Virus record (IMG/VR): IMGVR_UViG_3300025141_000127
Location: 1 to 54,089 of that record
Strand: one strand, 5' to 3'
Length of the DNA: 54,089 nt
Origin: a virus
Lineage: Duplodnaviria; Caudoviricetes
Of the stretch, positions 9,299 to 27,329 are shown in pieces. A program made the position numbers and the translations under genes. Position 1 is the stretch's first letter, and each line of letters opens with the position of its first letter. The notes beneath the pieces were generated by a model. The model was not told where the DNA came from. It made no database searches and was given only the letters and a program-made list of their open reading frames with translations.

Positions 9299-9874
9299 TC
9301 TGACGCAGCGGAACTCGGCGTCGCCGAGGATCTCTTCCTCGGTGCCTGACCACTCCGAAGGCAGAATGTCGAAGCTATCCACATCTCCAATCTTGCAGAT
9401 GTTGCGCCAGATCACACCCGACATCGACGATAGAGACGTGGCCTCGAGAACTAGAAGCAGGTCTCCACGCTTCAGCGCGAGGAAAGAGTGGCCGCGCTCC
9501 CAAGGCTTCTCCCACTTCTGATAGAGATACCACCCGTTGCCTCGGCCTTGGGTAGTGATGCCAAGCTCGTCGGCTGTGGTCAGGGGACCGTACAGGTCAT
9601 CTCTGCCCCACATCTGCCACTTCTTATACCGCTCAAAGCCCCAGTCTGCTTTGGGATAGACTGCCGATAGCAACCCATAGGTGAAGGTGGAGCAATCGAT
9701 CTCCCTCGTCCCCGTGCGGATCAGCGTGTGCGGGATGCCGGGGATGTGAGGTGGGTAGTCCACCTTGTGGCCATACTTATAGCCCCACCACACCGGCAGG
9801 GCCTGAAGGATTCGAGCGCGAAGACGGGTACTCCCAACCTCCGCAGGATGTAAACCAACGGGACAAACTTTCAT
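9287..9874 (-). CDS. NlpC/P60-like cysteine peptidase/amidase, possible endolysin
   Basis: IDCSTF catalytic-Cys motif, upstream YKYG, downstream GHSF; TGATG coupling to upstream gene. Confidence 0.6.
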   Translation of the reverse strand: MKVCPVGLHPAEVGSTRLRARILQALPVWWGYKYGHKVDYPPHIPGIPHTLIRTGTREIDCSTFTYGLLSAVYPKADWGFERYKKWQMWGRDDLYGPLTTADELGITTQGRGNGWYLYQKWEKPWERGHSFLALKRGDLLLVLEATSLSSMSGVIWRNICKIGDVDSFDILPSEWSGTEEEILGDAEFRCVRLRG

Positions 9875-10869
9875 CACACCCTCACCAAGTCCCAACCAAG
9901 GGACATAAAGTCATAGCCTTCCGGTAACACAGTCGTCTGCACAAATGCACCTGCGCACTCTACATTCCGAAGCGCCCGCATTATCCACCCAAGCGTGACG
10001 GGGTCATACGCCCTGTCAGGTAGGATGAAGAGTGACCTCGGGCCACTCAAGAGGGCACCCGCGAGCGCCACAGCAAGCGCCACAGTCTCCACACCCGAGG
10101 GGATAACCACCGTCCCATTAAGTGAGAGGCGAAACTCTCTCTCCGAAAGTTCGCAGAACTCAGCGCGCCCGATCTCCTCGGGCAGATACCTGTTGATGTG
10201 GGCCTCCACAGTAGAGAACGAGCCCCGGATGAACCGAAGAGCCTCGGCATCAATCTGCTTCTTCAACTCCTTAGCCCGACGAATGTCTTCTTCGAGCCCG
10301 TGCTTGTCGTTGATGATCTCCACGGGTGCCCCACCTCCATAGCCTTCATCGAAGAAGCCCTGCACCACGTTCAACTCGCGCAGGCGAGACTGGTGACTTC
10401 GGATCGCAGAGGCTGTGCCGCGTGACATCTCCAACAGGGCCTTGCGGTATGAACCATGATGCTTCACGCGCGCTTGCCAGCCGGGGATGTTCAGGTCAAT
10501 GGGGTGGTTATCATCGTCGATGTGCTCCAAAAGAAACTCCATCAATGACGCGGTACTTCCGGTGAGCGCATGCATAGCCATAGCAACTACGTTGTCAAAG
10601 CGGTCGCTGCGGTCACCCCAGCATACCTCCTCTCCGTCAACGTACAGAGTTGAGTGCAGCTTTGCCCCGCGCGGAGCGAGCCTCTCAAGCGCGCCCTTCT
10701 GCTTCACATCTTTACCCGCCGCATCGAAGGCGGTGTCGAATGCAGCCAACTCGATGGAGTGCATGATAGCGCTCTTGCCCGAGCCATTGCGGCCGATGAT
10801 CAGGTTGTAGGGCGAGTGCAAACTTAGGTCAATCCTGCCCTTCACATTAGAATGTATCTCATCAATCAT
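9874..10869 (-). CDS. SMC/Rad50-like ABC-family ATPase with short coiled coil
   Basis: Walker A GRNGSGKS; central coiled coil; degenerate signature PSGVE and Walker B/D-loop FILPDRAYDP; GGAGG RBS at 10869. Confidence 0.7.
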   Translation of the reverse strand: MIDEIHSNVKGRIDLSLHSPYNLIIGRNGSGKSAIMHSIELAAFDTAFDAAGKDVKQKGALERLAPRGAKLHSTLYVDGEEVCWGDRSDRFDNVVAMAMHALTGSTASLMEFLLEHIDDDNHPIDLNIPGWQARVKHHGSYRKALLEMSRGTASAIRSHQSRLRELNVVQGFFDEGYGGGAPVEIINDKHGLEEDIRRAKELKKQIDAEALRFIRGSFSTVEAHINRYLPEEIGRAEFCELSEREFRLSLNGTVVIPSGVETVALAVALAGALLSGPRSLFILPDRAYDPVTLGWIMRALRNVECAGAFVQTTVLPEGYDFMSLGWDLVRV

Positions 10870-11045
10870 TTGTCCTCCCTTACTTCTCGGGGCCATATCC
10901 AGCCCGCGTGTCTGTTCTCGCATTCCCAGCCTCCCTGTGGACCCGCGTCAACAACGGTGTCCATAATTCCCCAGTTCCATGTGCGCGCCTCCCCGCACCG
11001 TGAGCAACGGCTCCCCTCCTTCTCCCACACTAGGCGACGCGCCAA
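10866..11045 (-). CDS. Small zinc-finger protein (59 aa, TTG start; not in ORF track)
   Basis: AAGGAG RBS; MARRLVWEKEGSRCSRCG...WECENRH; ATGA overlap with the ATPase gene. Confidence 0.55.
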   Translation of the reverse strand: MARRLVWEKEGSRCSRCGEARTWNWGIMDTVVDAGPQGGWECENRHAGWIWPREVREDK

Positions 11046-11224
11046 AGGTTCTCCTTGGTGGATCGGATCTGCCGGTGGTCAATCCTTCCTGTACTAGCCA
11101 GCTTACGCAGCCAGTAGTCCAACGTCAGTGGCGCGTAGCCGCTGCGGTCGGCGACCTCGCGCGTGGTGTACCATCCTCCTGCGGGTATGGCCTCCAGCAC
11201 TCGCTCTTGCTTCTTCTTGTTCAT
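11030..11224 (-). CDS. Winged-helix DNA-binding protein
   Basis: YTTREVADRSGYAPLTLDYWLRKLASTGRI is a wHTH pattern. Confidence 0.65.
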   Translation of the reverse strand: MNKKKQERVLEAIPAGGWYTTREVADRSGYAPLTLDYWLRKLASTGRIDHRQIRSTKENLWRVA

Positions 11225-11233
11225 CCGTCCTCC

Positions 11234-13693
11234 CTAGACATCTTTCCAAGTTCTGCCAATCTCTGCGCTGGCCGTGAAGGTAACATCGAGACCCTCAACC
11301 CTGCGGGTCAGTGTCTCGTCAACGATCTCCTTGACCTCCTGCGCACGCTCTTCGGGCACCGACAGGAGCACAGCGTCATGTAGCTGATTGACCAGACCTA
11401 TCTTGTTGTCGAAGTCGAAGGGGATGTGCTGCTCCACCAACTCAAGCATAGACATGGCCACTACTGCAAAGCCTCCCGCCTGCACCCCGAAGTTCAGGAT
11501 GGCGTTGTAGTCCTCCTCCGCGAAGTAACGCCGGCGCATCCACACGCGCTCCTCGACGTACCCGTAGTCAGAGAAATGCTTTATTGTTTCTTTCCACCAC
11601 GCTTCAAACTCCGGGGCTTCTGACTTCCATCGGCGATGCAGCAATCGGATCTGCCGCAGGTCGTAGTGCGCGTAGAGCATGTTCCCTTCTTCGTCTTCCG
11701 CCCGCCCGCTGATTTCGTGGACTTTCGGGGCAGAGGCTCCGTACAGTGACGCGAAGCAGATGGTCTTGGCGAGGTTCCGCAGTTGCTTGAACTGGCCCGT
11801 GCCTTTGCCCATCTTGGTATCCGGCGCTCCCTCCGCTTTCCAAAACGCTTCTCCGAACATGAGGTCCGCAGTGAGGTTGTGGGGGTCGATCTCTTTCTTC
11901 TCGAAGGCGTCGAGGTAGTGCTGCGCTCCAGACAAGGCGGCTGCGAATCGTAGTTCAAGTTGATCGTAGTCCGCACCCACAAAGACGCAGCCTTCTGGAG
12001 GGATGAACATATCCCGTAGGTTGAAAGGTATGTTCTGAAAGTTTGGGTTAGAGGACGATAGTCTTCCAGTAACTGTTCCGTGTGAGTTGTAGTCGGGGTA
12101 GACATAGCCATCCTTTACGACACCCGCTCCGGGCGCGAACTTTCTAAGGTAAGTAGATAACAGCTTCTCCGCTCTACGGTAGAACCGAAGCGCCTGTAAA
12201 AATGCACGCTGCCTATCGTCCACTAAAGGGTTGATGGACAGGGACCGCAGGGAGGCTGCGCTAGTGGAGGGCTCACCTGACAGGGTGTACTCATGGGGAG
12301 GCAACGCCCACTTATCGAAGAGCAGGCGACGCAACTGGGTCGGTGAGTTGGGGTTGATGTCGGGCTGGATCTTGCTCAACTCCAGACGCCACTCATACGC
12401 GATCTCCGTCTGTTCCTCCTCATGCCAAGCGCGAGTCTCCTCGTCAATACGCATCCCCATACGACGCATGCCCGCACACAAGCTTTGGAGGCGCAGGTCT
12501 TTGTCGATCAGATGGGTCTGCTTTCTCTCCCAGACCATCTCCAACAAGGGCTGAATAATACGAGAGGTTACGGCCACGTCGGTAGCGCAGTATTGGTGAA
12601 GCTCCTCGTCGGTCTTCGCCGTCACACCCGCGTGGTCGGCCTTCCATGCCGGCACATCAGTAAGGACCGAGCCCACAAAGCCAAGGCTGTGACGGTACTC
12701 GGACGCGCCCAGCTTATGGAGTAGGATGGTATCGATCAGGGAGGTGGGGTTCCCTAGCTTATGAGACTCACACACCAGACGATCAAAGTAACCTGCATTG
12801 TGACCGGCAATACGAACCGACTCATCATCGAACACCTCACGAAGCAGACGTTTAATCTCTCGCTCATCCTCTGGCGAGTAGAATCTTGACACTCCGTCGA
12901 TACTTAGGAAGCCCAGTATTAAAACCTCGTTGTCCGTGCCGATCCCTATACAGCGAAGCTCGCAGTTCAGGGCGTCCACACCGTCGGTCTCCACGTCATA
13001 GGTCAGCACCCACTCGTTCTTGCGTGCGTCGTCAAAGAACTCACGCACCACATCGGGTGCCGGGTTGTATCTCACCACAGGGTCTTTCCAGCGTAGGGTG
13101 CCCTTGTGGTGACGCATTGCCTTCTGCACATCGCCATGCAGCACGGGCGTCAGATGCCTCTGTGCGGCGACCTGTGAGGGGTGATAGGTCGGGAGTATCT
13201 TGAGTCCCTCAACAAGCGTAGGGCCACCTCTGACGGCCTCGAGTGAAGGGTTGCCGGCGAGCATGAACTTGGTCGCGGTGGGGCCGCAGGTGATCACCGT
13301 CTTGTACCGGGCCATCTCCTCCTCGACGTGACCCCTGCACGCTTCGACGGGGGACATCGCAGGACGCCTGCCGGTGCCCGCACCTTGACGGTTCCTCTTC
13401 TTGAGTATCTGCATAAACATACGCGCGTCGTCTTTCGGCCACCGACACCCTACGACGTAGCCGTAGTCAACACCGTGGGCCTTGGTCCCCGCAGACTCGA
13501 GCGCATCCTTCATCGCGACGCCATGCTCGTCGGCCCATGCCCTTCCGAGAACGGACGCCTGCTTCGAGGGGGCGTCACCTAATACCAGAACATCGGAGCC
13601 GTTGTGTAAGAAGTCAACGCGCTCCCACTTACCCTCGGCCTGCCAGTATTTCCGAAGAGGGCAGCGCTCACACTTCGCCTTATCAAATCCCAT
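11234..13693 (-). CDS. polA: Family A DNA polymerase with N-terminal UDG-like domain and 3'-5' exonuclease
   Basis: UDG-like CERC/GDAPS/CRWP/PTYHPS; exonuclease DVETD, HNAGYFD, YCATD; TGRLSS, motif A DYDQLELR, motif B KTICFASLYG, motif C HDA. Confidence 0.93.
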   Translation of the reverse strand: MGFDKAKCERCPLRKYWQAEGKWERVDFLHNGSDVLVLGDAPSKQASVLGRAWADEHGVAMKDALESAGTKAHGVDYGYVVGCRWPKDDARMFMQILKKRNRQGAGTGRRPAMSPVEACRGHVEEEMARYKTVITCGPTATKFMLAGNPSLEAVRGGPTLVEGLKILPTYHPSQVAAQRHLTPVLHGDVQKAMRHHKGTLRWKDPVVRYNPAPDVVREFFDDARKNEWVLTYDVETDGVDALNCELRCIGIGTDNEVLILGFLSIDGVSRFYSPEDEREIKRLLREVFDDESVRIAGHNAGYFDRLVCESHKLGNPTSLIDTILLHKLGASEYRHSLGFVGSVLTDVPAWKADHAGVTAKTDEELHQYCATDVAVTSRIIQPLLEMVWERKQTHLIDKDLRLQSLCAGMRRMGMRIDEETRAWHEEEQTEIAYEWRLELSKIQPDINPNSPTQLRRLLFDKWALPPHEYTLSGEPSTSAASLRSLSINPLVDDRQRAFLQALRFYRRAEKLLSTYLRKFAPGAGVVKDGYVYPDYNSHGTVTGRLSSSNPNFQNIPFNLRDMFIPPEGCVFVGADYDQLELRFAAALSGAQHYLDAFEKKEIDPHNLTADLMFGEAFWKAEGAPDTKMGKGTGQFKQLRNLAKTICFASLYGASAPKVHEISGRAEDEEGNMLYAHYDLRQIRLLHRRWKSEAPEFEAWWKETIKHFSDYGYVEERVWMRRRYFAEEDYNAILNFGVQAGGFAVVAMSMLELVEQHIPFDFDNKIGLVNQLHDAVLLSVPEERAQEVKEIVDETLTRRVEGLDVTFTASAEIGRTWKDV

Positions 13694-13874
13694 CCGTGTC
13701 CTCCGTCAGTTCAATCCTTGCAGGGGGCATCTTCTCTTCGACGCCAGAGTACACCAGCACCAGTGAGCTACACTTTGGGCAGGACAGGTTGGTGACCATA
13801 CTGTAGAAGTGGCTGTCCTCCGCCTCATGGTCGCCGCCCCAGATCAACTCGGCCTTACAGTGCCAGCAGTTCAT
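13683..13874 (-). CDS. Small zinc-finger protein
   Basis: MNCWHCKAELIWGGDH...CPKC; GGAG RBS. Confidence 0.65.
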   Translation of the reverse strand: MNCWHCKAELIWGGDHEAEDSHFYSMVTNLSCPKCSSLVLVYSGVEEKMPPARIELTEDTDGI

Positions 13875-13892
13875 TATGTCTCCAGAGAAAAA

Positions 13893-13971
13893 GGGGATGC
13901 TTCGCGGACCAACTTTCAAAATCCTACTCAACAACCGAACTCACAACAGTTGGTGAGATTGAAGCACCCCC
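13893..13971 (-). ncRNA. Putative structured RNA, unit 2
   Basis: 11-bp closing stem GGGGGUGCUUC/GAAGCAUCCCC (G-U pair works only on - strand); inner CUCAC/GUGAG hairpin; intergenic. Confidence 0.45.
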
Positions 13972-13982
13972 AATGAGGTGAA

Positions 13983-14058
13983 GGGACGCCCCGCAGGAAC
14001 AACCACGAACCTTACCCGGTAACGAGAGGACACAAACGTGCCGGGATTGGGACGCCCC
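13983..14058 (-). ncRNA. Putative antisense sRNA with anti-RBS loop, unit 1
   Basis: 10-bp closing stem GGGGCGUCCC/GGGGCGUCCC; inner CCCGG/CCGGG stem with loop UUUGUGUCCUCU; second loop UUCGUGGUUGUU. Confidence 0.55.
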
Positions 14059-14065
14059 TAAGTCA

Positions 14066-14572
14066 TTAGAATGGCACGTCAGCGTCGAGGCTTGCACGGG
14101 CCGCAGCGGCCTCCGCAGCAATCGCCTTGCGTGACTCGGCCTCGCTCTCGCGCAGCCACTCCGTCTCGGCGAAGGAACCCTCACCGATAGGTGGAGTGAA
14201 CTCCAGCCAACCGGACTGACCGACAACATGGTCCGAGCCCCACGCCTCGATTTCATCCCACTCGCAGCCGGAGTCTAAGATATCTCCAGCATCCTCGCGG
14301 GTGTAACCAATGCCTTCAAGGAACTCCATCCACACACGACCCGCCCAAGCGTAGGGCTGACCAGTGGCGTCAGCGTACATAAGCTGGCCGTAGCACACGC
14401 GGCCCTTCTCGGGACCATCCTCGACGGTGGCCTTCCACGTTGCCATGTAGTTGCCGGCCTTGCTCATGTCCGCGCGCAGCATATCCAGCCGCATGCGGTA
14501 GATGCCTCGAACGCTCAACTTGCCGCCCTGCAAACTCTCACTCTTATCAATACGAAACTTAACCATTGTCAT
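14066..14572 (-). CDS. Single-stranded DNA-binding protein (DUF669-like)
   Basis: GIY...SKAGNYM...DGPEKGR pattern; acidic tail DADVPF; follows Sak4-like ATPase. Confidence 0.7.
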   Translation of the reverse strand: MTMVKFRIDKSESLQGGKLSVRGIYRMRLDMLRADMSKAGNYMATWKATVEDGPEKGRVCYGQLMYADATGQPYAWAGRVWMEFLEGIGYTREDAGDILDSGCEWDEIEAWGSDHVVGQSGWLEFTPPIGEGSFAETEWLRESEAESRKAIAAEAAAARASLDADVPF

Positions 14573-14581
14573 CTCCCTCTA

Positions 14582-15514
14582 CTAAAAGTTGGTGAAAAAA
14601 TCATCCAACAGGTTGGTCTTGTAGCGGCGAAGTACCGCCCTATCAATGCCGTCGCTGACTCCCCAGCGAACGTGTCTTGGATCCTTGTCCTTGTACTTGG
14701 TTGAAATGCTGGCACCGTTTGCCTGCAACCACTTCTTAACCGAGCGTCGGTCCTTTGCCTCTGCCTTTATGATCCCTTGGCAAACCTTCTCGGCCAACTC
14801 GTCGAGCCACTCCAGTCCTTTGGCTCGGGGCAGGTCATAGCCTGTCGCTATCATGATCTCCCGAATGTTGGTGGGTGAGTAATCAGGCATCATCGAGAGG
14901 CGGCTACCCGTGATGTAGTTTGGGGTCGGCGCAGACTGGTAGACGTAGGGCCAGTTGCTTAGGGCGTCCTTGTCATACTTCATGCGGACCACGAAGTCTG
15001 ACATCGCCGGGATTTTCTCCGGCAGTTTCCAGCCTGTAATGGAGGGGTGTCCGGGGATGAACACCGTCTTGTTGTCACGGGTGACTTCGCGTGGCGGGGT
15101 CTCATGCATGACGAGGAAGCAGTGGCAGTCCGCGTTACGCACCCCGTCGCGCAGCTTGTACATCGTCTTGATCAAAACATCGAATGCCTTGAAGCCGGCG
15201 TTGCGTGGGTTGCTCTGGATGTGAATCAGTTCCGCATCGGCGATCAGGCTGAAGTCATCAATGATGATCGCGTTGTACTTCTTCGAAGCGCGGTGAACGA
15301 CATCGGTGATCTTGTCCACCGTCGTGTCGGGGGTGATCACCCAAGTGTCTGGCTCATGCCCGATGTAGTCAGAGCAGGAGGTTCCCCCCACCGACGTGAT
15401 CACAAGGGTCGAGCCGGCGAACGACTTGAGTAGGCCGAGCGTCTTGCCCACCTTGGGCGGCGCATAGATAATACCGAACACCTTCGGCAGGTCTTTGATC
15501 TTCGTCTTACTCAT
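14582..15514 (-). CDS. Sak4-like (AAA_24) ssDNA-annealing ATPase
   Basis: IYAPPKVGKT Walker A; IIIDDFS Walker B; MHE motif; lies between exonuclease and SSB. Confidence 0.75.
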   Translation of the reverse strand: MSKTKIKDLPKVFGIIYAPPKVGKTLGLLKSFAGSTLVITSVGGTSCSDYIGHEPDTWVITPDTTVDKITDVVHRASKKYNAIIIDDFSLIADAELIHIQSNPRNAGFKAFDVLIKTMYKLRDGVRNADCHCFLVMHETPPREVTRDNKTVFIPGHPSITGWKLPEKIPAMSDFVVRMKYDKDALSNWPYVYQSAPTPNYITGSRLSMMPDYSPTNIREIMIATGYDLPRAKGLEWLDELAEKVCQGIIKAEAKDRRSVKKWLQANGASISTKYKDKDPRHVRWGVSDGIDRAVLRRYKTNLLDDFFTNF

Positions 15515-16337
15515 AGTGTCCTCCTCGTTTGCAGGTCTGAAAGAAACGGCACTCGCCGAAGGTTGTTTGGCATGCGTGCTCTTGGTGACTCCCCGGCCAG
15601 CCGAAGGCTTCCCTTCCATCGAACTGGGCTATCATCCGCTCCGCCAACCTAACCGTCTCGGGGAACCGCGCAACAGACTTTTCGGCATACGGCAGAACTT
15701 TCCTCTTGAACGAAGAAACGGGCTTGCGGTCATCCCAGCCAATGAGGTTCAAGATGACGCCCCCGAACTGGTCGCCGTACATCTCACGCCCGATCATCTG
15801 CTGCCCGAGGAACTGGCCCGACAGGGCATACTTGTTGTGTGTCCTGTGCAGGATGGCGAAGCTCGTCTTGTGGTCCACGAAGTACACCTTGTCGTGGTGC
15901 TCCACGATCAGGTCGATGCGTGCCGTGTAGTCATACGCCCTCTCCGTGTGGTCCATGTGCGGGTCGAGCACCTGCGTCTCCACCTCTTTCTCCACGGCGA
16001 GGATGTGCCAGCTTGGAGTGAGGTACATCGCCGTGTACTGGTGGTACACCTCAATGACCTTGCGCCACCACTTGTCGTAGAGCGGATGGCCAGCCTCCAC
16101 GGCGCAGCGCGCTACCGCATCCTCGGGCGACAGGTACGAGGGCTCCTCGTCCTGCTGTTCACATTGGAGGTTGGCATAGTGGTGGGCGAGCGCAACGTGC
16201 ATGAGCGTGCCGCGAACCAACGCATCGGTTGGCTTCCACTCGCGCTCCTTGTTGAAGGCGTAGTAGCGGGGACACTTGAGCACGTTGGCCAGCCTGTGCC
16301 AGCCGGCGCGAGAGGGACCGGTGTCTAGGTATTGCAT
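15507..16337 (-). CDS. Cas4/AddB-like PD-(D/E)XK exonuclease
   Basis: KCPRYY, GTLMH, RIDLI..VDHKT, QFLGQ and C-terminal CxxxxxxCxxxxxC (Fe-S-type cysteines). Confidence 0.8.
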   Translation of the reverse strand: MQYLDTGPSRAGWHRLANVLKCPRYYAFNKEREWKPTDALVRGTLMHVALAHHYANLQCEQQDEEPSYLSPEDAVARCAVEAGHPLYDKWWRKVIEVYHQYTAMYLTPSWHILAVEKEVETQVLDPHMDHTERAYDYTARIDLIVEHHDKVYFVDHKTSFAILHRTHNKYALSGQFLGQQMIGREMYGDQFGGVILNLIGWDDRKPVSSFKRKVLPYAEKSVARFPETVRLAERMIAQFDGREAFGWPGSHQEHACQTTFGECRFFQTCKRGGHYE

Positions 16338-16501
16338 GCGTCCTCCATCGGCTCGGGCTTCCCGTCTTTGCCGATCACGCTGTACCAGCCGGGCCCATCG
16401 CAGGTAGGGCACATAGGCTCCGACGGCGACGAACGATCCTGCTCGTACTCAATGAACTCTCCGCAGTGGTTGCACTCGGCCCAGAAGTCTGCAAGTGTCA
16501 T
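16325..16501 (-). CDS. Small zinc-finger protein
   Basis: CNHC...CPTC; ATGA overlap. Confidence 0.55.
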   Translation of the reverse strand: MTLADFWAECNHCGEFIEYEQDRSSPSEPMCPTCDGPGWYSVIGKDGKPEPMEDACNT

Positions 16502-16758
16502 GCGTTCTCCCACATGCGAAAGGCTTTGTCCAACAGGACCAGTTCGCGGATGACGGTCTTGAACGAGGCCCGCTTGTTGTTGCGGGCAGCGAGGTTGCGG
16601 ATCAACCAGCGCACGTTGGCTGGGCGACTCGCGTCTCGGCGGAACGCGGGGATGTCCATCGAGTGCAGAAGCTTCTTCACTTCGAGGGCACGCTCTTGTA
16701 TCTCTTCGCCCCGGATACGGTGGATGGTAGCCTTGTAGTCGATCGTCTCGTCACCCAT
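16498..16758 (-). CDS. Hypothetical protein
   Basis: GGAGGTG RBS; coupled to both neighbours. Confidence 0.6.
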   Translation of the reverse strand: MGDETIDYKATIHRIRGEEIQERALEVKKLLHSMDIPAFRRDASRPANVRWLIRNLAARNNKRASFKTVIRELVLLDKAFRMWENA

Positions 16759-17096
16759 CACTCACCTCCCGCTTCGTAGGCGGCCCGCTCTGTTGGCAGG
16801 GTGATGAGGCAGTGGTCCCACAACTCCCGCTCGTACTGGTCCCAACGCCTGAAGATGAACACATCGACGACCCGACCCGGTACCACGCACTCCCGCAGGC
16901 GAGGCCACTCAAGGAAGTCGCCCTCGATTGAGTCTGCGTACCCGAGCCCAGTAACATCCGCCGCGTCATGCTGGTGAGCCTCGTCCCGGTAGGTCACGAA
17001 CTCAAAGGACCACGCGCCCTCTTCGCCCTCGAGTGTAGCCCGCACCGCATCGCGGCAAAACTGAATCATCTGCTTCTTCGTTGGCTTGCGCCCCAT
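16758..17096 (-). CDS. Hypothetical protein
   Basis: ACAACCATTGGAGGACAC leader; 112 aa. Confidence 0.65.
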   Translation of the reverse strand: MGRKPTKKQMIQFCRDAVRATLEGEEGAWSFEFVTYRDEAHQHDAADVTGLGYADSIEGDFLEWPRLRECVVPGRVVDVFIFRRWDQYERELWDHCLITLPTERAAYEAGGE

Positions 17097-17174
17097 GTGT
17101 CCTCCAATGGTTGTGTCAGTTTGGTTGCTGACCTGAATAAGTTAACAAGGTAGATGTCAACCAGATGTCAAAAC

Positions 17175-18617
17175 TTATAGACCCGCACTGGCAGCGAGTA
17201 TAGAAGCGATGATCGAGTCTTCGTCCTGATCTCCCATGAGGGTGCCGGCCACCTCGCCGGACTCTTTATCATCCAGCACAGCCTCCACTGATTGAAGCTT
17301 GTCGATCAGTATGTCCGCGACGTATTCGTCCACCGTACCACTGGCTACGGTGTACATGATCAGTACCGACCGCTTCGACCCGTGCCTGCTGAAGCGTCCC
17401 TCCGCCTGTGTGATCTGTCCCGGCGTCCACGGTAGCAGCCCGAAGACCACAAGGTCCGTGTTCTGCAACCCGTCGATGGATTCGCCGAACGCATCGGTGG
17501 TGCCGACGAATGCCGCCGCCCCCTCATGCGCTGCGTACTCGGCGACGATGCCGTCACGGTACTGGGTGCTGTCACCGCCGTGCCCTGTCCAGAGGGGAGC
17601 ATCCTTCAGCTTCTTCCCGATCAGCTTGGCGAGAGCCTCGCAGTCCTTGCGCCGCCCAGTGAAGACGCAGACCTTTTGTCCGGCGTCCACCGCGTCGGCC
17701 ACCGTCTCCGCGATCCAGCGGCGCTTACTACTTGCCGCTGAAAGAATCCTCACCTCGAAGAGAGCCTGCGCTCCGTTGCGGGCGGCCCTCTTCATATCCG
17801 CAGCGAACCCGGAAGGGCGGACCAGATCTGTCTTCGAGAGATACACAAGCTGCCGCCTCTTCGGAGGTAGCTTCCGCGCCATCTCCTCGCGCGAGACTAC
17901 ATGAACTATTTTTGCCAGTCTCTTTTTTAACTCTTCCTCATTCGAGCGGCCGGACACGTCGAGCCCGCCGAACTTACCGGGCTTCGCATCGCAGTAGCGG
18001 TGTACGAAAGACCAGTTAGTACCTAGAAAGTTGGGAGACACTAGGTCAGCCTGACCCCACAGGTCGCCAACCCTGTCCCTGATCAGCGTCGCCGTAAGAC
18101 CGAGACGACGGTGCGCCATGCGTGAGATCGCACAGGCTGCCGCCGCGCGGTTCTCCGCCGAGCGGTACTTGACGTTGCCATCACGGCCAAGGTACTTCCT
18201 CTGTCGCCGCCACGACTTGCCCTTGTGTAGCTCGTCGAACACCACGAAGAGGCGACCCGTCGTCTGACGCCACGCAGCTATCGCATCGATCCAGTAGGGT
18301 ATCGTATCCCATGAGAGGATCAGGATGTCAGCGTCGCGCATCTCCTCAAGAGGCATCGGCGTCCTACTCTCACCCACGATGGCACGGCCCGTGGTGTAGT
18401 GCGACACCTCCCGCTGCCACTGGCGGCGAGCGGGGGCGCGTGTGATGACCAGCGTCTTGCCGGGCTCACCCTGTGACGAGGCCCACAACAATGCAGCTAG
18501 CGTCTTACCTGACCCGCACGCCCACCACAGGATGGCGTCCTTCTGGAACATGAAGTCCCAACCCTCGTTCTGGTACTCGGTGAGGAACCCGTCGAGCACC
18601 CACTGGTGTACTCTCAT
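17175..18617 (-). CDS. SNF2-like SF2 helicase
   Basis: CGSGKT, FDELH, LTAT, GESIDGLQ, QAEGRFSRHG motifs. Confidence 0.88.
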   Translation of the reverse strand: MRVHQWVLDGFLTEYQNEGWDFMFQKDAILWWACGSGKTLAALLWASSQGEPGKTLVITRAPARRQWQREVSHYTTGRAIVGESRTPMPLEEMRDADILILSWDTIPYWIDAIAAWRQTTGRLFVVFDELHKGKSWRRQRKYLGRDGNVKYRSAENRAAAACAISRMAHRRLGLTATLIRDRVGDLWGQADLVSPNFLGTNWSFVHRYCDAKPGKFGGLDVSGRSNEEELKKRLAKIVHVVSREEMARKLPPKRRQLVYLSKTDLVRPSGFAADMKRAARNGAQALFEVRILSAASSKRRWIAETVADAVDAGQKVCVFTGRRKDCEALAKLIGKKLKDAPLWTGHGGDSTQYRDGIVAEYAAHEGAAAFVGTTDAFGESIDGLQNTDLVVFGLLPWTPGQITQAEGRFSRHGSKRSVLIMYTVASGTVDEYVADILIDKLQSVEAVLDDKESGEVAGTLMGDQDEDSIIASILAASAGL

Positions 18618-18859
18618 ATCTCACCCAGCGTCCACAAGATCGTGAACGAGAGCCACGACCAGATGTCCCTCTTCTTGCCCGTGACCTTCAACACACCACC
18701 TTCGATCTCAATCTCAAGGTCGAACATATCACCCATGATGGCGTACATAATGGAGTCCGCAGCATCGGGATGCTCGTCTAGTTCAAGAGATATGGAGGTC
18801 ATGATGCCTCGTATCGTGCCACGCTTCCCGAAGCAGGGGTCGGTAGTAACTAGCTTCAC
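18614..18859 (-). CDS. Hypothetical protein
   Basis: Overlapping start/stop on both sides. Confidence 0.5.
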   Translation of the reverse strand: MKLVTTDPCFGKRGTIRGIMTSISLELDEHPDAADSIMYAIMGDMFDLEIEIEGGVLKVTGKKRDIWSWLSFTILWTLGEI

Positions 18860-19092
18860 TTGGTCCTCATGATCTGGGCGATCTCTTCGTGGGTGATAAA
18901 GTAGCAGTCACAGTGGGTGCAGTGGCGACGCCTCCCGACGCCACCCCTACGGGCCAACTCTCCCGTGTCTTGCATCCGCAGCGCACTCACCAGTCGGTTG
19001 AGGATGTACCTCTTCTTCCCGGCCTTGCGCGTGTACGTCTTGACAGAGTCAATCACCTTGTTCTTTGATGAACCACAGACAGGGCACTTCAT
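18856..19092 (-). CDS. NrdR-like zinc-ribbon protein (no ATP-cone)
   Basis: MKCPVCG...KVIDS...RRRHCTHC..FITHE matches the NrdR N-terminal ribbon. Confidence 0.7.
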   Translation of the reverse strand: MKCPVCGSSKNKVIDSVKTYTRKAGKKRYILNRLVSALRMQDTGELARRGGVGRRRHCTHCDCYFITHEEIAQIMRTK

Positions 19093-19415
19093 GATCTCCC
19101 ACCCTCAATGATGTGGGCCATCGGCTCATCGAACCCTTCTTGGTTAGTGTTGAGGTCGCCGTCACAGGTCTGACGGGCAGCGTCATTCAACATCTTGATG
19201 ATGCCGGCTCGGGTCAAGTCCTCGTCGGGCACCTCGTACTCGCACAGGTAGTGGCCCACCTCGGTCCCCTCGGGGTCAGCCCCACACGCGAGGCCCTCCA
19301 TGAACTTCATGGCCGGGTCACTGAACTCAAAGAAGCGGATGCGCGGACCCCTCGGCCCCCACTCGCCACGGTCCTCATCTTCCTGCTTGTCCCAAGTTAC
19401 TGTATAGAACTTCAT
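19089..19415 (-). CDS. Hypothetical protein
   Basis: GGGAG RBS; acidic 108-aa ORF; ATGA overlap. Confidence 0.6.
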   Translation of the reverse strand: MKFYTVTWDKQEDEDRGEWGPRGPRIRFFEFSDPAMKFMEGLACGADPEGTEVGHYLCEYEVPDEDLTRAGIIKMLNDAARQTCDGDLNTNQEGFDEPMAHIIEGGRS

Positions 19416-19460
19416 TCTTTCTCCCAAAACTACTGTGTGTGTGCAATGTCTCTTGCCATG

Positions 19461-19742
19461 TTAATCTCCCTCATGGAATCTAAGCGTGCCGTCCTGACGT
19501 TTGCTTGCCTCTACATCCTCTCGTATGTCGTGATCAGCGGGGGGCTCGGCACGTACTGGGCGGGGCTTGCGCTCGGCTGGTGGTGAGACCTTAGCAAGTT
19601 CCCTGCGCCACACCCGGAGGAAGCGGCGACCATGCCTGCAATCGCAGGCCACGATCTTCCGCTCGTCTCCGTGACGCCACGCCAAGACGGACAGGTAGCC
19701 CGCGTCCAAACAATCAGGACACTTCTTCAGCTTACGAGGCAT
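19461..19742 (-). CDS. Zinc-finger protein
   Basis: CPDCLDAGY...ACDCRHG. Confidence 0.55.
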   Translation of the reverse strand: MPRKLKKCPDCLDAGYLSVLAWRHGDERKIVACDCRHGRRFLRVWRRELAKVSPPAERKPRPVRAEPPADHDIREDVEASKRQDGTLRFHEGD

Positions 19743-19917
19743 CGCCGCCACCAAAACCAAAGTAAGGGTCGTGTGTGTTTCCACCCGGCGGGCACAGGTA
19801 TACCTTCGTAATAGTAAGTGGTAGATCTAGGTCGCTAGCGTCACAAGCCTCCTGCATAATCTCTAAGAACCATGCGTAGTCATCTTCATTTGCAAATGTA
19901 ACTCTCGCTTCAATCAT
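19732..19917 (-). CDS. Hypothetical protein
   Basis: AAGGAGG RBS; overlaps neighbours. Confidence 0.5.
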   Translation of the reverse strand: MIEARVTFANEDDYAWFLEIMQEACDASDLDLPLTITKVYLCPPGGNTHDPYFGFGGGDAS

Positions 19918-20167
19918 CACTTCCCTCCTTACTGTACCCATCCTTGTACCAGCCACCGCCCTTCAGAACGAACGAGCCGCCGGACACCATCTTCGTCGAG
20001 TCCTTGTACCCACAGTTGGGGCACGTCTGCTTGTCCCTGCAACCCATCGAGACGAACACCTCGAAGACATCGCCGCAACCGTCGCACTTGTACTCATAGA
20101 TAGGCACTGACTTCCTCCTGCTGCGAGGCTGGAACTGGTTGATGTACTCTTCGTCATGTGCTCCCAT
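19910..20167 (-). CDS. FmdB-family zinc-ribbon protein (may start at GTG 20107)
   Basis: PIYEYKCDGCG..FE...CPNCG...SFVLKGGGWYKDGY. Confidence 0.8.
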   Translation of the reverse strand: MGAHDEEYINQFQPRSRRKSVPIYEYKCDGCGDVFEVFVSMGCRDKQTCPNCGYKDSTKMVSGGSFVLKGGGWYKDGYSKEGSDD

Positions 20168-20185
20168 GTTGACCTCCCTAAAGGT

Positions 20186-20203
20186 GGCCCCCCGAAGGGG
20201 GCC
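20186..20203 (-). terminator. GC-rich UUCG hairpin after DUF932 gene (terminator or 3' stabiliser)
   Basis: GGCCCCC-UUCG-GGGGGCC followed by ACCUUU. Confidence 0.55.
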
Positions 20204-20210
20204 TCAAGTC

Positions 20211-21182
20211 CTACGCAGTGAGCAGTGCCATCGCGCGCTCGTTCAACTTGGCGGCAGGGCCTTCAACTGAACCGAGGAAGAGCTTCTCTTCACGGTCACC
20301 ACCCCGCGTTGGGATGTGGTGTGTGCTGTACTCGGTGACTGCATTGAGCGCCTGCCACTTCGAGCCACGTCCAGAGTGGGCACCGCGCCCGTGCTCGTAC
20401 AAGTCGAAGAGCAACTCGCGACGGTTCTCTGCCAACGTGTAGCCACGGGTAGGCTCGCCCTCCAGAGGAACCTCGGGCAGTGGAAGCAGGTTGTCCATGA
20501 AGTCGGCGAAGTCCATCGCGCTGAAGGGAGTATCCGCGAGGGTCTTCATGATCGCCTTCTGCGTCATGATCATCCGCTCACAGTTGCGGAAGAGATCCTC
20601 CGCCATACGCAAACGCTCCGGCGCGCTGCGCGTGTGGCGGATGCTGGTATGGGGCAGGCCCATGCGCTTGACCATCTGCCTTGTTGCGACCAGTTGGTTC
20701 GTGCAGTAGCCACGGCCAAGGGCCACGAACACCTCGGTGGAGGAGCTACTGTCGTGCGAACCTCGGGTCCAAACGTATGGGGTGACGAGGTCGCCGTCCC
20801 CGGTCACGTCGAACTGGTAGTCCGTCAACTCCACACTGACGAAGAGCCTGCGCCCGTTGAACTCGATGGCCCTGTCAAGGGAGAAGCCCTCCTGTAGCAG
20901 GTGGTCAATCACTCCGAACATCTCGCCGAAGCCGATGGGTGTGTAGCGGTCGGTGACGTTCTCACCAACGATGCGGCCACGACTGTCCATCAGGTTGTAC
21001 TTGCCGGGGATCACCCGCACGCCACCGTCGGGTAGGATGGAAGCCATCGGCACCTTGACGGGCGCGTCGAATGGGATGTCGGCAGACAGGAGAGCCTGCA
21101 CGATATTCTCGGACTCGGTTGGAACCTTGAAGCCGAGGGTGGTGGCGGGGGCCTGATGATCATATTCAATATCGTCAAACAT
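20211..21182 (-). CDS. DUF932-family phage/plasmid protein
   Basis: SHDSSSS, RGYCTNQL, IRHT, WQALNAVTEYSTH motifs. Confidence 0.85.
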   Translation of the reverse strand: MFDDIEYDHQAPATTLGFKVPTESENIVQALLSADIPFDAPVKVPMASILPDGGVRVIPGKYNLMDSRGRIVGENVTDRYTPIGFGEMFGVIDHLLQEGFSLDRAIEFNGRRLFVSVELTDYQFDVTGDGDLVTPYVWTRGSHDSSSSTEVFVALGRGYCTNQLVATRQMVKRMGLPHTSIRHTRSAPERLRMAEDLFRNCERMIMTQKAIMKTLADTPFSAMDFADFMDNLLPLPEVPLEGEPTRGYTLAENRRELLFDLYEHGRGAHSGRGSKWQALNAVTEYSTHHIPTRGGDREEKLFLGSVEGPAAKLNERAMALLTA

Positions 21183-21286
21183 ATTGTCCTCTCAAGTATG
21201 GTTGGGAACTGTTGTGGCCGTTCCCTTCGCCATCATGACCCCTGTATTTAGGGGTGCGTAGATACGCAACAAAGTTTCTCGTTTTC

Positions 21287-21394
21287 TTATCGTCCCCCTT
21301 CGTCCTGCGCTTGCATCAAAAACACCGTGCCCATACCTCCGAGGTAGAAGGAGGCGAGCAACACGATGAACTCCAGCCCGGTGATCTCGGTCAT
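21287..21394 (-). CDS. Small membrane peptide (35 aa)
   Basis: GGAGGTG RBS plus ATGA overlap; MTEITGLEFIVLLASFYLGGMGTVFL. Confidence 0.5.
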   Translation of the reverse strand: MTEITGLEFIVLLASFYLGGMGTVFLMQAQDEGGR

Positions 21395-21573
21395 GCCGTC
21401 ACCTCCTTCGTGCTCTCGATGGCGTCGGTGGTCAGCATGTCATGCAGCACACTGTGCGCGTGGTCCAGAACCTTCTCCACTTCAGCGGGGTTGACATCGG
21501 GGAGCGCCTCGCACACTTCGTACAACATGCGGCTGATGCTCTCTAGTTTTTCACTCTGTTTTTCACTTAACAT
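21391..21573 (-). CDS. Hypothetical protein (60 aa)
   Basis: AAGGAGG RBS before ATG 21573. Confidence 0.55.
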   Translation of the reverse strand: MLSEKQSEKLESISRMLYEVCEALPDVNPAEVEKVLDHAHSVLHDMLTTDAIESTKEVTA

Positions 21574-21583
21574 TGCGTCCTCC

Positions 21584-22225
21584 TTAGAACGGCAGGTCGT
21601 CGTCATCATGGACAACGGCGACGGGGGTTGGGGTTGGGGTTGGGGTTGGCTCGGCTGGCTCCGGCTGGTCGTGCGCGTAGTCAAAGTAGAAGTAGGCATG
21701 TCCGTCAACCAGACGAGCGTGAACCTCGTAGCGCACGCTGCCCCTCGGCATCTCCTCGGAGAACCACAGTGAGGCAGACACCTCTTGAGGCGCGGACACG
21801 ATGAGCACTCGAAGCTGGTCCTCCTCACACAACTCACCGAGCCCAGTGTTTGGCTCGCAGGGGTCGGACAGGTTCTGCCAGTCGGCGACCACCTCAACAT
21901 CAAAGTCGGCGCTGACGAGCACGCGGCTCACCGTACCGTGGAATTGTTGGGCGATCGTCTTCTCGTACTCGACACACAGATCAAGAGAGACGCGAACCTC
22001 AACGTCGTCGCTGTACTCGTTGCCGGCCTCGGTCTCTTCGCGCTCGTCCTTGATGACGTACACCCGAGCAATGTCCTTGCCGGGGCGCGCACCATTGCGA
22101 TCAAGAGATGCGTCGTGCTTGCCGTGAAGCAAGTCGTGCAGGAACTTGGATGCCTGCGGGGTCATGTCCCACCCGCTCTCGCGGGTGAGGTTGGTGCCCT
22201 TGTCGTCGTAGCGTGAGTCTTCCAT
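21584..22225 (-). CDS. Hypothetical acidic protein with PT linker and DDDDLPF tail
   Basis: AAGGAGG RBS before ATG 22225; 213 aa. Confidence 0.65.
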   Translation of the reverse strand: MEDSRYDDKGTNLTRESGWDMTPQASKFLHDLLHGKHDASLDRNGARPGKDIARVYVIKDEREETEAGNEYSDDVEVRVSLDLCVEYEKTIAQQFHGTVSRVLVSADFDVEVVADWQNLSDPCEPNTGLGELCEEDQLRVLIVSAPQEVSASLWFSEEMPRGSVRYEVHARLVDGHAYFYFDYAHDQPEPAEPTPTPTPTPVAVVHDDDDLPF

Positions 22226-22235
22226 GTCGTCCTCC

Positions 22236-22490
22236 TTAGAACGGGGAGTGGGGTTCAGGTTCATCATCGAGGGTCGGGTTCATGTCCGGCGGAACGACCG
22301 GAGTCTGTGGCACAATGGGCTCCAACGCATCCGCGCTGCCGCACTCCAGCTTGTCAGCATAGGCGCGGGCCTTAACGACGAAGCGCTCCATCGCATTCGC
22401 GCAGGCCCTCCAGTCGTCTGCGTGGTTGATCGTGTCCATGTCTACCTCGGGGGTAGGGTGGTCGTAGGCTTCGGCGAGAGTGAGTTTCAT
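22236..22490 (-). CDS. Hypothetical protein with acidic tail ending PF
   Basis: GGAGGACAC RBS; 84 aa. Confidence 0.6.
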   Translation of the reverse strand: MKLTLAEAYDHPTPEVDMDTINHADDWRACANAMERFVVKARAYADKLECGSADALEPIVPQTPVVPPDMNPTLDDEPEPHSPF

Positions 22491-22581
22491 GTCGTGTCCT
22501 CCAAGCAGGTGGTTTGTTCCTGCATCTGTCTAGTAATTGGTTGCGCCCCCCAAGTGGGGGGCAGGTTTGTCAAGAGAATGT

Positions 22582-22710
22582 CTAGGCCCCCATGTCGTAG
22601 ACGTGGTAGCGTCCGTCGAGTTCTTTCTCGATGCGAAGGTTGCTGTGGTGGTAGGCGTCGCAGAAGTCGATAGCCGGCCAGAGGTAGAGGAACTGGGCGA
22701 TGCTTTTCAT
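22582..22710 (-). CDS. Hypothetical protein (42 aa)
   Basis: ATGA coupling through GGGGTGCGGCATGA junction. Confidence 0.5.
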   Translation of the reverse strand: MKSIAQFLYLWPAIDFCDAYHHSNLRIEKELDGRYHVYDMGA

Positions 22711-23045
22711 GCCGCACCCCCTTCGAGTGCAGCCTTGACGAGGTGGTACGCTTCGGCGCTGTTGCCCCCGACGTTCCACGTCGTGACCTGAAAGCGGTTC
22801 ATGCCGCCGGGGCCGCAGTAGTTGGGACCGTTCTTCCAGTTGTACACCGTAGCCACGGTGCCGCAGGGGAACTCAATGTTCCATGACCAGTCCACCTGAT
22901 CGGGGCCCTCCACCCAGATGTGCTTGCCGAAGGCGAGGTACAGTTGGTTGTAGGTGATGTCGGTCAGGGTGCCCTGCTTGTAGGTGCCGTGGATGCAGAT
23001 GCCTTCGTCCTCGTTGTGCGTGAGGTAGGCTCGGTTCTTCGTCAT
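22707..23045 (-). CDS. Conserved-looking phage hypothetical protein (112 aa)
   Basis: AGGAGGACAC RBS; QG...TYNQL..AFG...W...ATVYNWK...WNVGG. Confidence 0.65.
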   Translation of the reverse strand: MTKNRAYLTHNEDEGICIHGTYKQGTLTDITYNQLYLAFGKHIWVEGPDQVDWSWNIEFPCGTVATVYNWKNGPNYCGPGGMNRFQVTTWNVGGNSAEAYHLVKAALEGGAA

Positions 23046-23122
23046 GGTGTGTCCTCCTGCCGGGTGGTTTGGTGCCGGCTCACCGTGGTTAACTGACTCA
23101 AGATGTAGGGGCAACAATATGA

Positions 23123-23269
23123 TCACAGCCACCGCTTCTGGCGGCAGGCTCGTCGGTCGGCCTCCTTCTTCTTGTCGGTGTGGTACCCCGCCTTGGCGGA
23201 GCGTGACTTCATGGCCTGCACGACGGCGTTGCGTCGCTTCGGTGGGGCCTGTCGTTTGCGCCTGCTCAT
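23123..23269 (-). CDS. Small basic protein (48 aa)
   Basis: MSRRKR...RNAVVQAM..RSAKAGYHTDKKK; ATGA coupling. Confidence 0.55.
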   Translation of the reverse strand: MSRRKRQAPPKRRNAVVQAMKSRSAKAGYHTDKKKEADRRACRQKRWL

Positions 23270-23364
23270 GCTGCACCTCCGAGTTGTGAATAGAAGTACA
23301 TTGTAACTGCCCAGCAGACGATCGCGAGGAGCCACGCGGCAACCTCGTAGCGTAGGTCTCTCAT
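23266..23364 (-). CDS. Small membrane peptide (32 aa)
   Basis: Hydrophobic AAWLLAIVCWAVTMYFY; GGAA junctions at both ends. Confidence 0.55.
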   Translation of the reverse strand: MRDLRYEVAAWLLAIVCWAVTMYFYSQLGGAA

Positions 23365-24780: not shown

Positions 24781-24815
24781 GGTGTCCTCTCGAATGAATG
24801 GTGGGTGGGTGGTGA

Positions 24816-25190: not shown

Positions 25191-25219
25191 GTTGTCCTCT
25201 CGAATGGTTGATGGCTGAC

Positions 25220-25275: not shown

Positions 25276-25287
25276 GAAGGGTGGGCG

Positions 25288-26055: not shown

Positions 26056-26080
26056 GTTGTCCTCTCTGGTTGTGACTGAC

Positions 26081-26135: not shown

Positions 26136-26159
26136 TGCCCCCCGAAGGGGGCTCGGTGA

Positions 26160-26639: not shown

Positions 26640-26661
26640 GTCGTCCTCTCGTTGGTTGGTT

Positions 26662-26708
26662 CCGTTTCGGCCTTGCTTGGCCTCATCAGCGGGGCTTCCC
26701 CCGGACGG
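26662..26708 (-). ncRNA. Type III hammerhead ribozyme B
   Basis: CCGUC^CGGGG-GAAG-CCCCG CUGAUGA GGCC-AAGCAA-GGCC GAAACGG; predicted cut 26704/26703. Confidence 0.93.
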
Positions 26709-26730
26709 TGCCCCCGAAGGGGCGTGGCGG

Positions 26731-26949: not shown

Positions 26950-26967
26950 GTCGTCCTCTCGTTGGTT

Positions 26968-27016
26968 GCTGTTTCGCCCTTCATCGGGCTCGTCAGGTGG
27001 GCTTCCCCACGACAGC
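26968..27016 (-). ncRNA. Type III hammerhead ribozyme A
   Basis: GCUGUC^GUGGG-GAAG-CCCAC CUGACGA GCCC-GAUGAA-GGGC GAAACAGC; predicted cut 27011/27010. Confidence 0.94.
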
Positions 27017-27036
27017 GCCCCCGAAGGGGCGGCCCG

Positions 27037-27300: not shown

Positions 27301-27329
27301 GGTGTGTGTCCTCAAAGGTTGGTTGGTGA

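Follow-up and report, generated by a model that had tools for sequence, protein, structure and literature searches.

The stretch of DNA analyzed here (the window) is the complete 54,089-bp IMG/VR virus record IMGVR_UViG_3300025141_000127, apparently the genome of a lytic, marine, uncultured phage. Its - strand genes span from ~28,100 down to 9,300, with small early genes first and a replication module next, the latter encoding a SNF2/DEAD helicase, a PD-(D/E)XK nuclease, a Sak4-like AAA_24 protein, a 168-aa protein resembling SSB (SSB-like), a 63-aa zinc-ribbon open reading frame (ORF) and a fusion of uracil-DNA glycosylase (UDG), exonuclease and PolA domains; the remaining genome lies on the + strand and encodes large late proteins. 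The subject of this analysis is an RNA element (element 1) located directly past the stop codon of the SSB-like gene. An initial annotation of the sequence had placed it in a gap between the SSB and polymerase genes, and had interpreted it as a candidate antisense RNA directed against the shared leader of the early genes. The placement holds on the SSB side, but on the polymerase side a second element (element 2, 13893-13971) and the zinc-ribbon ORF (13683-13874) intervene. Element 1 and its parts are as follows:

13982..14059, - strand: element 1, three-way-junction RNA with closing stem P1 and hairpins P2 and P3 (minimum free energy structure, RNAalifold on 14 sequences, pair counts over 16)
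14049..14059, - strand: 5' strand of P1, A + GGGGCGUCCC; 11 pairs, 100% of cells paired
13982..13992, - strand: 3' strand of P1, GGGGCGUCCC + U, the second exact copy of the 10-mer
14015..14045, - strand: P2 hairpin, bearing loop 1 (14025-14036); both-side changes in 7 of 10 pairs
13995..14012, - strand: P3 hairpin, bearing loop 2 (13998-14009); 3 pairs, compensatory change in 2
14027..14031, - strand: invariant core GUCCU of loop 1, complement of AGGAC (Shine-Dalgarno block of early and replication genes); 16 of 16 sequences
14001..14005, - strand: invariant core UGGUU of loop 2, complement of the leader box AACCA; 16 of 16 sequences

The minimum free energy structure of the 76 nt at 13983-14058 on the - strand is a three-way junction of -31.3 kcal/mol, closed by one copy of GGGGCGUCCC paired with a second GGGGCGUCCC, two of the pairs being G-U. 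The - strand junction with a 10-bp, G-U-containing stem that had been proposed is therefore recovered by energy minimization, and comparison with relatives adds one further pair, A14059-U13982, an extension to 11 bp that is backed by a U-A to A-U swap. The + strand of the same interval folds worse (-23.3 kcal/mol, z = -1.0). Considered as a single sequence, the - strand fold is weak, with z = -1.89 and 9 of 200 shuffles folding equally well.

Relatives of the locus were identified through the neighboring protein. A search with the 168-aa protein alone retrieved 4 viral loci and a search with a five-sequence protein alignment retrieved 16, at 43-80% identity to the protein of the window. Element 1 is present 6-7 nt past the SSB-like stop codon in 16 of these 16 loci, with GUCCU and UGGUU intact, and, since the loci were found through the SSB-like protein only, this conservation is unbiased by the search. 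Both loop cores are kept even in lineages in which the flanking protein is only 43-49% identical. DNA-pattern scans matched 17 viral and 32 metagenome stretches, in each set 7 being family members and the rest unrelated repeats containing the 10-mer; the exact two-10-mer pattern matched 10 stretches in prokaryote genomes, none of them a family member, and no prophage copy was seen. A loop-anchored pattern matched 22 viral stretches, 6 of which were new and scored 99.8-103.9 bits with the covariance model. The distinct element 1 sequences total 16. In a metagenome contig from a near-identical strain (L058, 10562-10741) element 1 matches that of the window at 76 of 76 nt, and both the 108-nt gap beyond it and the SSB-like protein hold several changes. 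Three contigs from related strains (from 4 runs) cross the gap with 18-32 differences each, and among the matches listed the interval 13952-14154 is free of differences, which may be taken as a weak hint of conservation at the sequence level.

The 24 pairs of the junction were evaluated over the 16 distinct sequences, in an alignment fitted to the covariance model that somewhat favors the structure. Of the 383 pair cells, 96.9% are paired, and compensatory (both-side) changes occur in 11 of the 24 pairs, distributed as 2 in P1, 7 in P2 and 2 in P3. The covariation score is 0.459, versus 0.232±0.018 for shuffled controls (0 of 500 reach 0.459) and at most 0.168 when pairing partners are slid. 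RNAalifold returns the same junction from 14 sequences, and a plain MAFFT alignment gives the same pairs. Within P1, G-C is replaced by A-U in 4 of 16 sequences, and U-G/C-G switches are found that are compatible with the - strand alone. The complementary strand pairs only 79.7% of cells (14 sequences), which identifies the - strand, also the sense strand of the flanking genes, as the one that folds. Because all 16 protein-found loci keep the element with both loop cores and the helices covary, the finding exceeds chance, and sequence comparison establishes element 1 as a conserved, strand-specific RNA fold constituting a new structured RNA family.

Outside the helices, four words are fixed in the family: two at the junction, AAUC joining P1 to P2 (its C already forms the first pair of P2) and GUA joining P2 to P3, and two in the loops, GUCCU (loop 1) and UGGUU (loop 2). 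The last two are the only invariant loop words; the adjoining loop bases differ between lineages, with loop 1 occurring as UUUGUGUCCUCU, GGUGCGUCCUUC and UUUCUUGUCCUUC, and UGGUU occurring in two loop 2 contexts, CGUGGUUGU and GCUGGUUAC. With 60-nt flanks, the mean probability of being unpaired is 0.70-0.99 for GUCCU (13 sequences) and 0.39-0.97 for UGGUU, and both loops are predicted to be open in their sequence context.

The two invariant loop words have their counterparts in the leaders of the early genes. Nine leaders listed in the initial annotation, which comprise all those given below except that of start 24780, read as described there, with AACCA followed by (GA)GAGGAC(A) just before the ATG, and the tenth carries the box variant CACCA:

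27301..27324, - strand: leader of start 27300, AACCA box and GAGGACA block
26950..26967, - strand: leader of start 26949, AACCAACGAGAGGACGAC, directly 3' of a hammerhead
26640..26661, - strand: leader of start 26639, AACCAACCAACGAGAGGACGAC, directly 3' of a hammerhead
26056..26071, - strand: leader of start 26055, AACCAGAGAGGACAAC
25191..25209, - strand: leader of start 25190, AACCAUUCGAGAGGACAAC
24781..24803, - strand: leader of start 24780, CACCAUUCAUUCGAGAGGACACC, box variant CACCA
23046..23069, - strand: leader of start 23045, AACCACCCGGCAGGAGGACACACC
22491..22514, - strand: leader of start 22490, AACCACCUGCUUGGAGGACACGAC
21183..21203, - strand: leader of start 21182 (DUF932 gene), AACCAUACUUGAGAGGACAAU
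17097..17112, - strand: leader of start 17096, AACCAUUGGAGGACAC

In order to assess whether these words are specific to a gene class, 30 starts on the - strand (9874-28123) were compared with 26 late starts on the + strand (46-52593). The most enriched 5-mer in the -40 to -1 region of - strand starts is AGGAC, found at 18 of 30 (1.3 expected) and at 0 of 26 late starts (Fisher 4e-7), in each of the 18 cases at most 18 nt from the start. Enrichment ranks 2-4 are taken by overlapping Shine-Dalgarno words, and AACCA, at rank 5, leads the words that lie outside the Shine-Dalgarno block (9 of 30, 1.0 expected, versus 0 of 26; Fisher 0.002). The enrichment of loop-complementary words in early genes that the initial annotation had called for is thus observed for both words. 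The ribosome sites of late genes are of the plain GGAG/GAGG type. Standard pairing with the 16S tail, judged by its consensus, does not demand the A-C that follows GAGG, and AGGAC may therefore be read by something other than the ribosome. The combined pattern AACCA-N(0-30)-AGGACA occurs on the - sense strand in 8 distinct leaders and at one other place, and on the + strand once, at element 1. A leader-like reading of this + strand occurrence was considered, a GTG and a 7-codon frame following it in the window, and was discarded: the start codon is lost in the lineage of the related phage G002, and the G-U pattern favors the - strand. Two-box leaders are shared by the early regions of the relatives G001, G002 and G004; those of G004 read ACAACCAC...AAGGAGGACAC, and three of them match GUGGUUGU of loop 2 across 8 nt.

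The invariant loop words are the reverse complements of the two leader words, and they stand in the right order; the naive chance of this, on the condition that each loop word must hit one of the five top leader words, is ~(5/1024)^2, a post hoc and loose figure. The longer loop strings named in the initial annotation are likewise the reverse complements of leader strings on inspection of the sequence, and the fold together with the leader sequences bears out that the order of the loops suits antiparallel binding. Pairing was gauged by duplex energies and unpaired probabilities; RNAcofold cannot model loop-loop (kissing) pairing. The mean duplex energy of loop 1 (13 nt) is -17.7 kcal/mol with the 10 box leaders (range -16.1 to -20.4), -12.4 kcal/mol with the 20 other - strand starts, among which those headed by AGGAC reach -13.5 to -17.6 kcal/mol, and -8.3 kcal/mol with the 26 late starts, which are therefore at background, as shuffled loop 1 yields -8.2 kcal/mol on them. 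For loop 2 the corresponding means are -9.7, -6.5 and -6.1 kcal/mol, with shuffled loop 2 giving -7.4±1.1 kcal/mol on box leaders and 5 of 300 shuffles reaching the observed value. When the whole - sense strand was scanned without supervision, ribosome sites of - strand genes made up 15 of the 40 best predicted targets of loop 1, and on the whole + sense strand the antisense of element 1 itself is the sole outstanding loop 1 site.

Two of the leaders lie directly 3' of self-cleaving ribozymes of the hammerhead type:

26659..26711, - strand: type III hammerhead with an intact core (RF00008, 44.1 bits versus a gathering threshold of 48.5)
26966..27018, - strand: type III hammerhead with a CUGACGAG core (RF00008, 38.4 bits versus 48.5)

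Both hammerheads have intact cores, and each ends exactly at the start of an AACCA box, that of gene 26639 or of gene 26949. Directly 5' of each stands a G+C-rich hairpin with a UUCG loop, CCGCCCCUUCGGGGGC (27017-27032 and 26710-26724, - strand), which would possibly cap the 3' end of the upstream fragment after self-cleavage, as a stabilizer. Hammerhead-like GCCGAAAC is also found on the - strand upstream of 26055 (~26072-26110) and 25190 (~25210-25240), with a CUGACGA-like word only before 26055; these strings, which have no Rfam match at E≤10, may be relics or ribozymes that have diverged. Perreault et al. 2011 (PMC3088659) describe phage transcripts in which single genes are flanked by ribozymes, and hammerhead-punctuated phage and prophage operons resemble the present case in that two hammerheads stand directly 5' of shared leaders; element 1 itself differs from them in having neither a hammerhead core nor a ribozyme match.

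Downstream of element 1, the gap contains two further features:

13893..13971, - strand: element 2, a tandem three-way junction with an 11-bp stem, GGGGGUGCUUC/GAAGCAUCCCC (cmsearch, 50.6 bits at 13885-13974; minimum free energy structure)
13884..13892, - strand: U-rich run UUUUUCUCU, after element 2 and immediately preceding the zinc-ribbon ORF's GGAG ribosome site (sequence)

Element 2 has the junction words AAUC and GUAG, as in element 1, and different loops, with no GUCCU loop. A long-stemmed junction occupies its slot in 6 of the 7 lineages folded (the window, G001, G002, G004, G005 and L015); the seventh, L016, is without element 2, and its zinc-ribbon ORF begins 20 nt after element 1. 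The sequence 3' of element 1 is UUCACCUC in the window and AUUUAUCU in most relatives, and element 2 is followed by UUUUUCUCU. A scan of 13000-15000 for intrinsic terminators, which takes only simple hairpins with loops of 3-8 nt, returned 0 sites; partial termination at a branched stem is possible.

Taken together, these features are best accounted for by an RNA of the replication module that would pair with the early leaders and block ribosome binding there. Element 1 would be transcribed with the replication genes, as a tail of the SSB-like gene that is 3' untranslated or intercistronic, and its 11-bp stem and junction bases (AAUC, GUA) would present two open hairpin loops next to each other. 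Loop 1 (core GUCCU; here up to UGUGUCCUCUCG) would pair with the AGGAC-type Shine-Dalgarno block, and loop 2 (core UGGUU; here GUGGUUGU) with the AACCA box located 3-10 nt upstream of that block. With the ribosome site so occupied, translation of the early class would be shut down and the AGGAC-headed replication genes perhaps damped, and the late genes would escape, as neither leader word is present there. We infer that the element is made as RNA, that the pairing occurs, that its effect is repression, and that it acts either as a segment of the long mRNA or as a small RNA excised from it. Such an element could be an RNA counterpart of the T4 repressor RegA, silencing the class of genes marked by AACCA and AGGAC as replication begins, and could form together with the hammerheads an all-RNA timing circuit; this wider proposal, in which the functional link between hammerheads and element 1 is a conjecture, is a rather doubtful one.

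Several observations weigh against leader pairing. The 20 sequencing runs that contain the stretch, the DNA ones being labelled marine or seawater metagenomes, include no RNA run. The scan of 13000-15000 also yielded 0 sigma-70-like promoters, which, with the 0 simple terminators, leaves a discrete small RNA unsupported; on the simplest view, element 1 would belong to the replication mRNA. At 5 + 5 nt, the invariant cores are short. The 10 box leaders were picked by motif, so that their low duplex energies are partly circular and only the contrast between gene classes is informative, and the lists of gene starts behind that contrast were hand-curated. By chance ~0.33 occurrences of AACCA-N(0-30)-AGGACA are expected per strand, so that its one match on the + strand lacks significance if taken alone. 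The presence of AGGAC also at the head of the replication genes beside element 1 would make the target set wider than the early genes and blurs an early-only switch, and element 2 possesses the scaffold without the loops, so the scaffold may serve processing, termination or stability. Of the covariation in related phages that had been suggested as a check, that within helices is present, but that between loops and leaders was looked for and not found: among the lineages compared no compensatory change links the two. In G001, loop 1 has changed from CCUCUCG to CCUCACG (U-to-A), yet the leaders of this phage still read GAGAGG, and of 7 lineages no more than 3 have, 5' of GUCC, a base that fits the conserved ribosome site of the Sak4-like gene. 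The counts of GGACAC versus GGACAA leaders in G004 and G005 differ in the right direction but are far too small to test, as are those of the base following AACCA in leaders tallied by hand. As the putatively interacting cores are invariant, the comparison speaks neither for nor against the pairing. Because the cores are short, no covariation of loops and leaders was found, AGGAC heads replication genes and element 2 lacks the loops, our confidence in leader pairing remains tentative, a little short of even. The overall interpretation first given to the locus stands in its structure, strand, loop order, core conservation and complementarity to class-specific words, and is not supported in a discrete ~76-nt RNA, in loop/leader covariation or, as discussed below, in membership of the C4/CI family.

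The same structure can be read as a module for processing, stability or termination, in which the tandem junctions mark a cut (of the RNase III or RNase P type), protect against 3' exonucleases or cause partial termination. Its role would then be to set the SSB : polymerase ratio; the loops would engage in tertiary contacts or be recognized by a protein, and the resemblance of the loops to the leader complement would be incidental or the relic of an inverted leader copy. The position of the element, fixed at 6-7 nt past the stop in 16 of 16 loci, agrees with such a role, as does the occurrence in 6 of 7 lineages of element 2, with its AAUC/GUAG words, 11-16 bp stem, other loops and a U run that immediately precedes the ribosome site of the next gene. 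The 43-49% identity lineages have AUUUAUCU after element 1, no promoter of its own was found in the 13000-15000 scan, the early genes are already separated by RNA devices (the hammerheads), and the failure to find loop/leader covariation points the same way. A processing role leaves unexplained, however, why the only invariant loop words complement the top word and the first non-Shine-Dalgarno word of the leaders, and why these cores are fixed amid drifting neighboring loop bases. Stability elements and RNase III sites usually need no conserved terminal loops, and the simple terminator scan finds none. We regard this explanation, the chief rival, as unlikely, although it retains real weight.

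Pairing could instead be local, with the loops binding the AGGAC(AC) sites of the Sak4-like gene (15514) and the polymerase (13693) and acting as a brake on replication proteins rather than as an early shut-off. Loop 1 energies with these two leaders (-17.4 and -17.2 kcal/mol) are at the level of the early box leaders, the GGAGGACAC at the Sak4-like start is kept in G001, G002 and G004, and the cis position of the element favors nearby partners; autoregulation of their own translation is described for T4 gp32 and gp43 in PMC3014915. Neither leader, though, has an AACCA box, and loop 2 energies with them (-5.5 and -5.4 kcal/mol) are at shuffled level, so that the invariance of loop 2 is left unexplained; in addition, the base adjoining GUCC follows the Sak4-like site in no more than 3 of the 7 lineages. 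Purely local autoregulation is thus distinctly improbable. Still less probable, to the point of being hardly credible, is a DNA-level signal in which two direct copies of the near-palindromic 10-mer GGGGCGTCCC, 66-69 bp apart, serve as origin or operator sites and the RNA fold is a by-product. Both 10-mers hardly vary, replication genes surround the site, and the exact 10-mer is rare in the window, with 2 of its 3 copies in element 1, but matches with at most one mismatch number 13 versus 6.6 expected, which is not striking. Strong covariation of P2 and P3 (9 of 13 pairs compensatory), pair-preserving change in the 10-mers themselves (G-C to A-U in 4 of 16; U-G/C-G switches), far worse pairing of the opposite strand and a spacing that drifts between 66, 67 and 69 bp all speak against DNA sites. 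On the - strand at 48577-48627, inside a late-region ORF, two near-copies of GGGGCGUCCC stand 24 nt apart; the weak model match there (23 bits, E 6e-4, closing stem only) is probably due to chance.

Element 1 was also compared with known RNA families. At gathering thresholds the whole window has 0 Rfam matches, and a cmscan of 13850-14120 on both strands at E≤10 returned only a chance match to the snoRNA sR43 (12.9 bits) and no C4. The kinship with the P1 C4 and P4 CI RNAs drawn in the initial annotation consequently does not extend to family membership, and the likeness is functional only. ARAGORN detected 0 tRNA or tmRNA genes in the whole window. No Rfam match at E≤10 to self-cleaving ribozymes (hammerhead, twister, twister-sister, pistol, hatchet, HDV-like) was obtained in the gap, and the junction strands of element 1 are AAU, UA and GC, without a CUGANGA/GAAA core. 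Of what defines small RNAs derived from 3' untranslated regions, a candidate class for element 1, the position directly past a stop codon and conserved seeds that are predicted to be single-stranded are observed.

In its temperate phage, C4 precedes its target within one immunity operon. Element 1 differs from it in lying 3-13 kb downstream of the box leaders, in a replication module rather than an immunity operon, in its architecture, a three-way junction with an 11-bp closing stem, and in its putative targets, which would be a class of 10-18 genes instead of one operon. It shares with C4 two loops complementary to two boxes at a ribosome site (GUCCU/AGGAC and UGGUU/AACCA, the pairing being predicted). 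The c4 RNA of P1 and P7 blocks a ribosome site through complementary sequences in its loops, as stated in PMC12197685, and according to PMC11143913 its precursor is excised from a longer transcript by RNase P. Both c4 (RF01695) and P4 CI are akin to element 1 as phage-encoded, folded RNAs of ~77 nt with loops complementary to two ribosome-site boxes. According to PMC3014915, early mRNAs of T4 are silenced by RegA and RegB at the ribosome site, and regA is located within the replication gene cluster; the putative class-wide early shut-off here and the location of element 1 run parallel to this. RegA (a translational repressor) and RegB (a nuclease acting at GGAG sites) are proteins, whereas the candidate effector here is an RNA.

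Blocking of ribosomes on several targets by a pyrimidine-rich anti-Shine-Dalgarno word is known from the staphylococcal small RNAs with UCCC loops and from the UCCCC motif of the icaR 3' untranslated region. Element 1 is similar to these in displaying an anti-Shine-Dalgarno word in a hairpin loop or 3' untranslated region. They are host RNAs with a single seed and a generic Shine-Dalgarno match; in element 1, by contrast, loop 1 is at background on the phage's own late sites (-8.3 versus -8.2 kcal/mol) and a second loop would read a box outside the Shine-Dalgarno block. The titles and abstracts searched, in which most subscription journals are not covered, contain no report of a phage RNA targeting a shared early-gene leader, and we rate element 1 as a new RNA family and as a variant of antisense translational control not previously described.

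The switch from early to late expression in phages is known mostly to operate via proteins such as sigma and anti-sigma factors, RegA, RegB and modifiers of RNA polymerase. If leader pairing is true, it would add temporal control by RNA alone, through the reading of a class-specific leader, it would account for the extended ribosome-site word (AGGAC + AACCA) of one gene class, which goes beyond what 16S rRNA pairing needs, and it would offer synthetic biology a compact, portable pair of two-loop repressor and leader tag. Irrespective of its function, element 1 represents a well-supported new structured RNA family of abundant uncultured marine phages, small enough for direct biochemistry without culture of the host.

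The protein-coding neighbors of the two elements are the following:

14066..14572, - strand: SSB-like gene, 168 aa, OB fold, acidic tail ending ...DADVPF; element 1 begins 7 nt past its stop
13683..13874, - strand: zinc-ribbon-like ORF, 63 aa; ORF and start conserved in relatives
11234..13693, - strand: DNA polymerase A with N-terminal UDG-family and 3'-5' exonuclease domains, leader GGAGGACAC (Pfam)

The 168-aa SSB-like protein has no Pfam or PHROG match. Its AlphaFold2 model (pLDDT 83) has as best PDB fold match PrgE of plasmid pCF10 (E 1e-4, TM 0.70 on the target); RPA and SSB chains come next, at E>0.03. PrgE, an atypical OB-fold DNA binder, thus outranks the classical SSBs as a match, and the ...D-x-P-F end of the protein resembles an SSB tail. 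The label of SSB previously given to the protein is therefore reasonable as judged from modelled OB-fold similarity to PrgE, RPA and SSB. A megablast of 13000-15000 against 50,697 phage records gave no match, and a tblastn of the polymerase against the same records gave nothing above 28% identity; among these records there is no close cultured phage. In the polymerase, the UDG-family domain comprises residues 32-179, ahead of the exonuclease and polymerase domains. At 13825-13875, which corresponds to the first ~17 codons of the zinc-ribbon ORF, the depth rises up to ~2,100, versus ~7 beside it, with many unrelated metagenome contigs contributing; the N-terminal motif of the zinc ribbon is therefore widespread in other marine phages or organisms.

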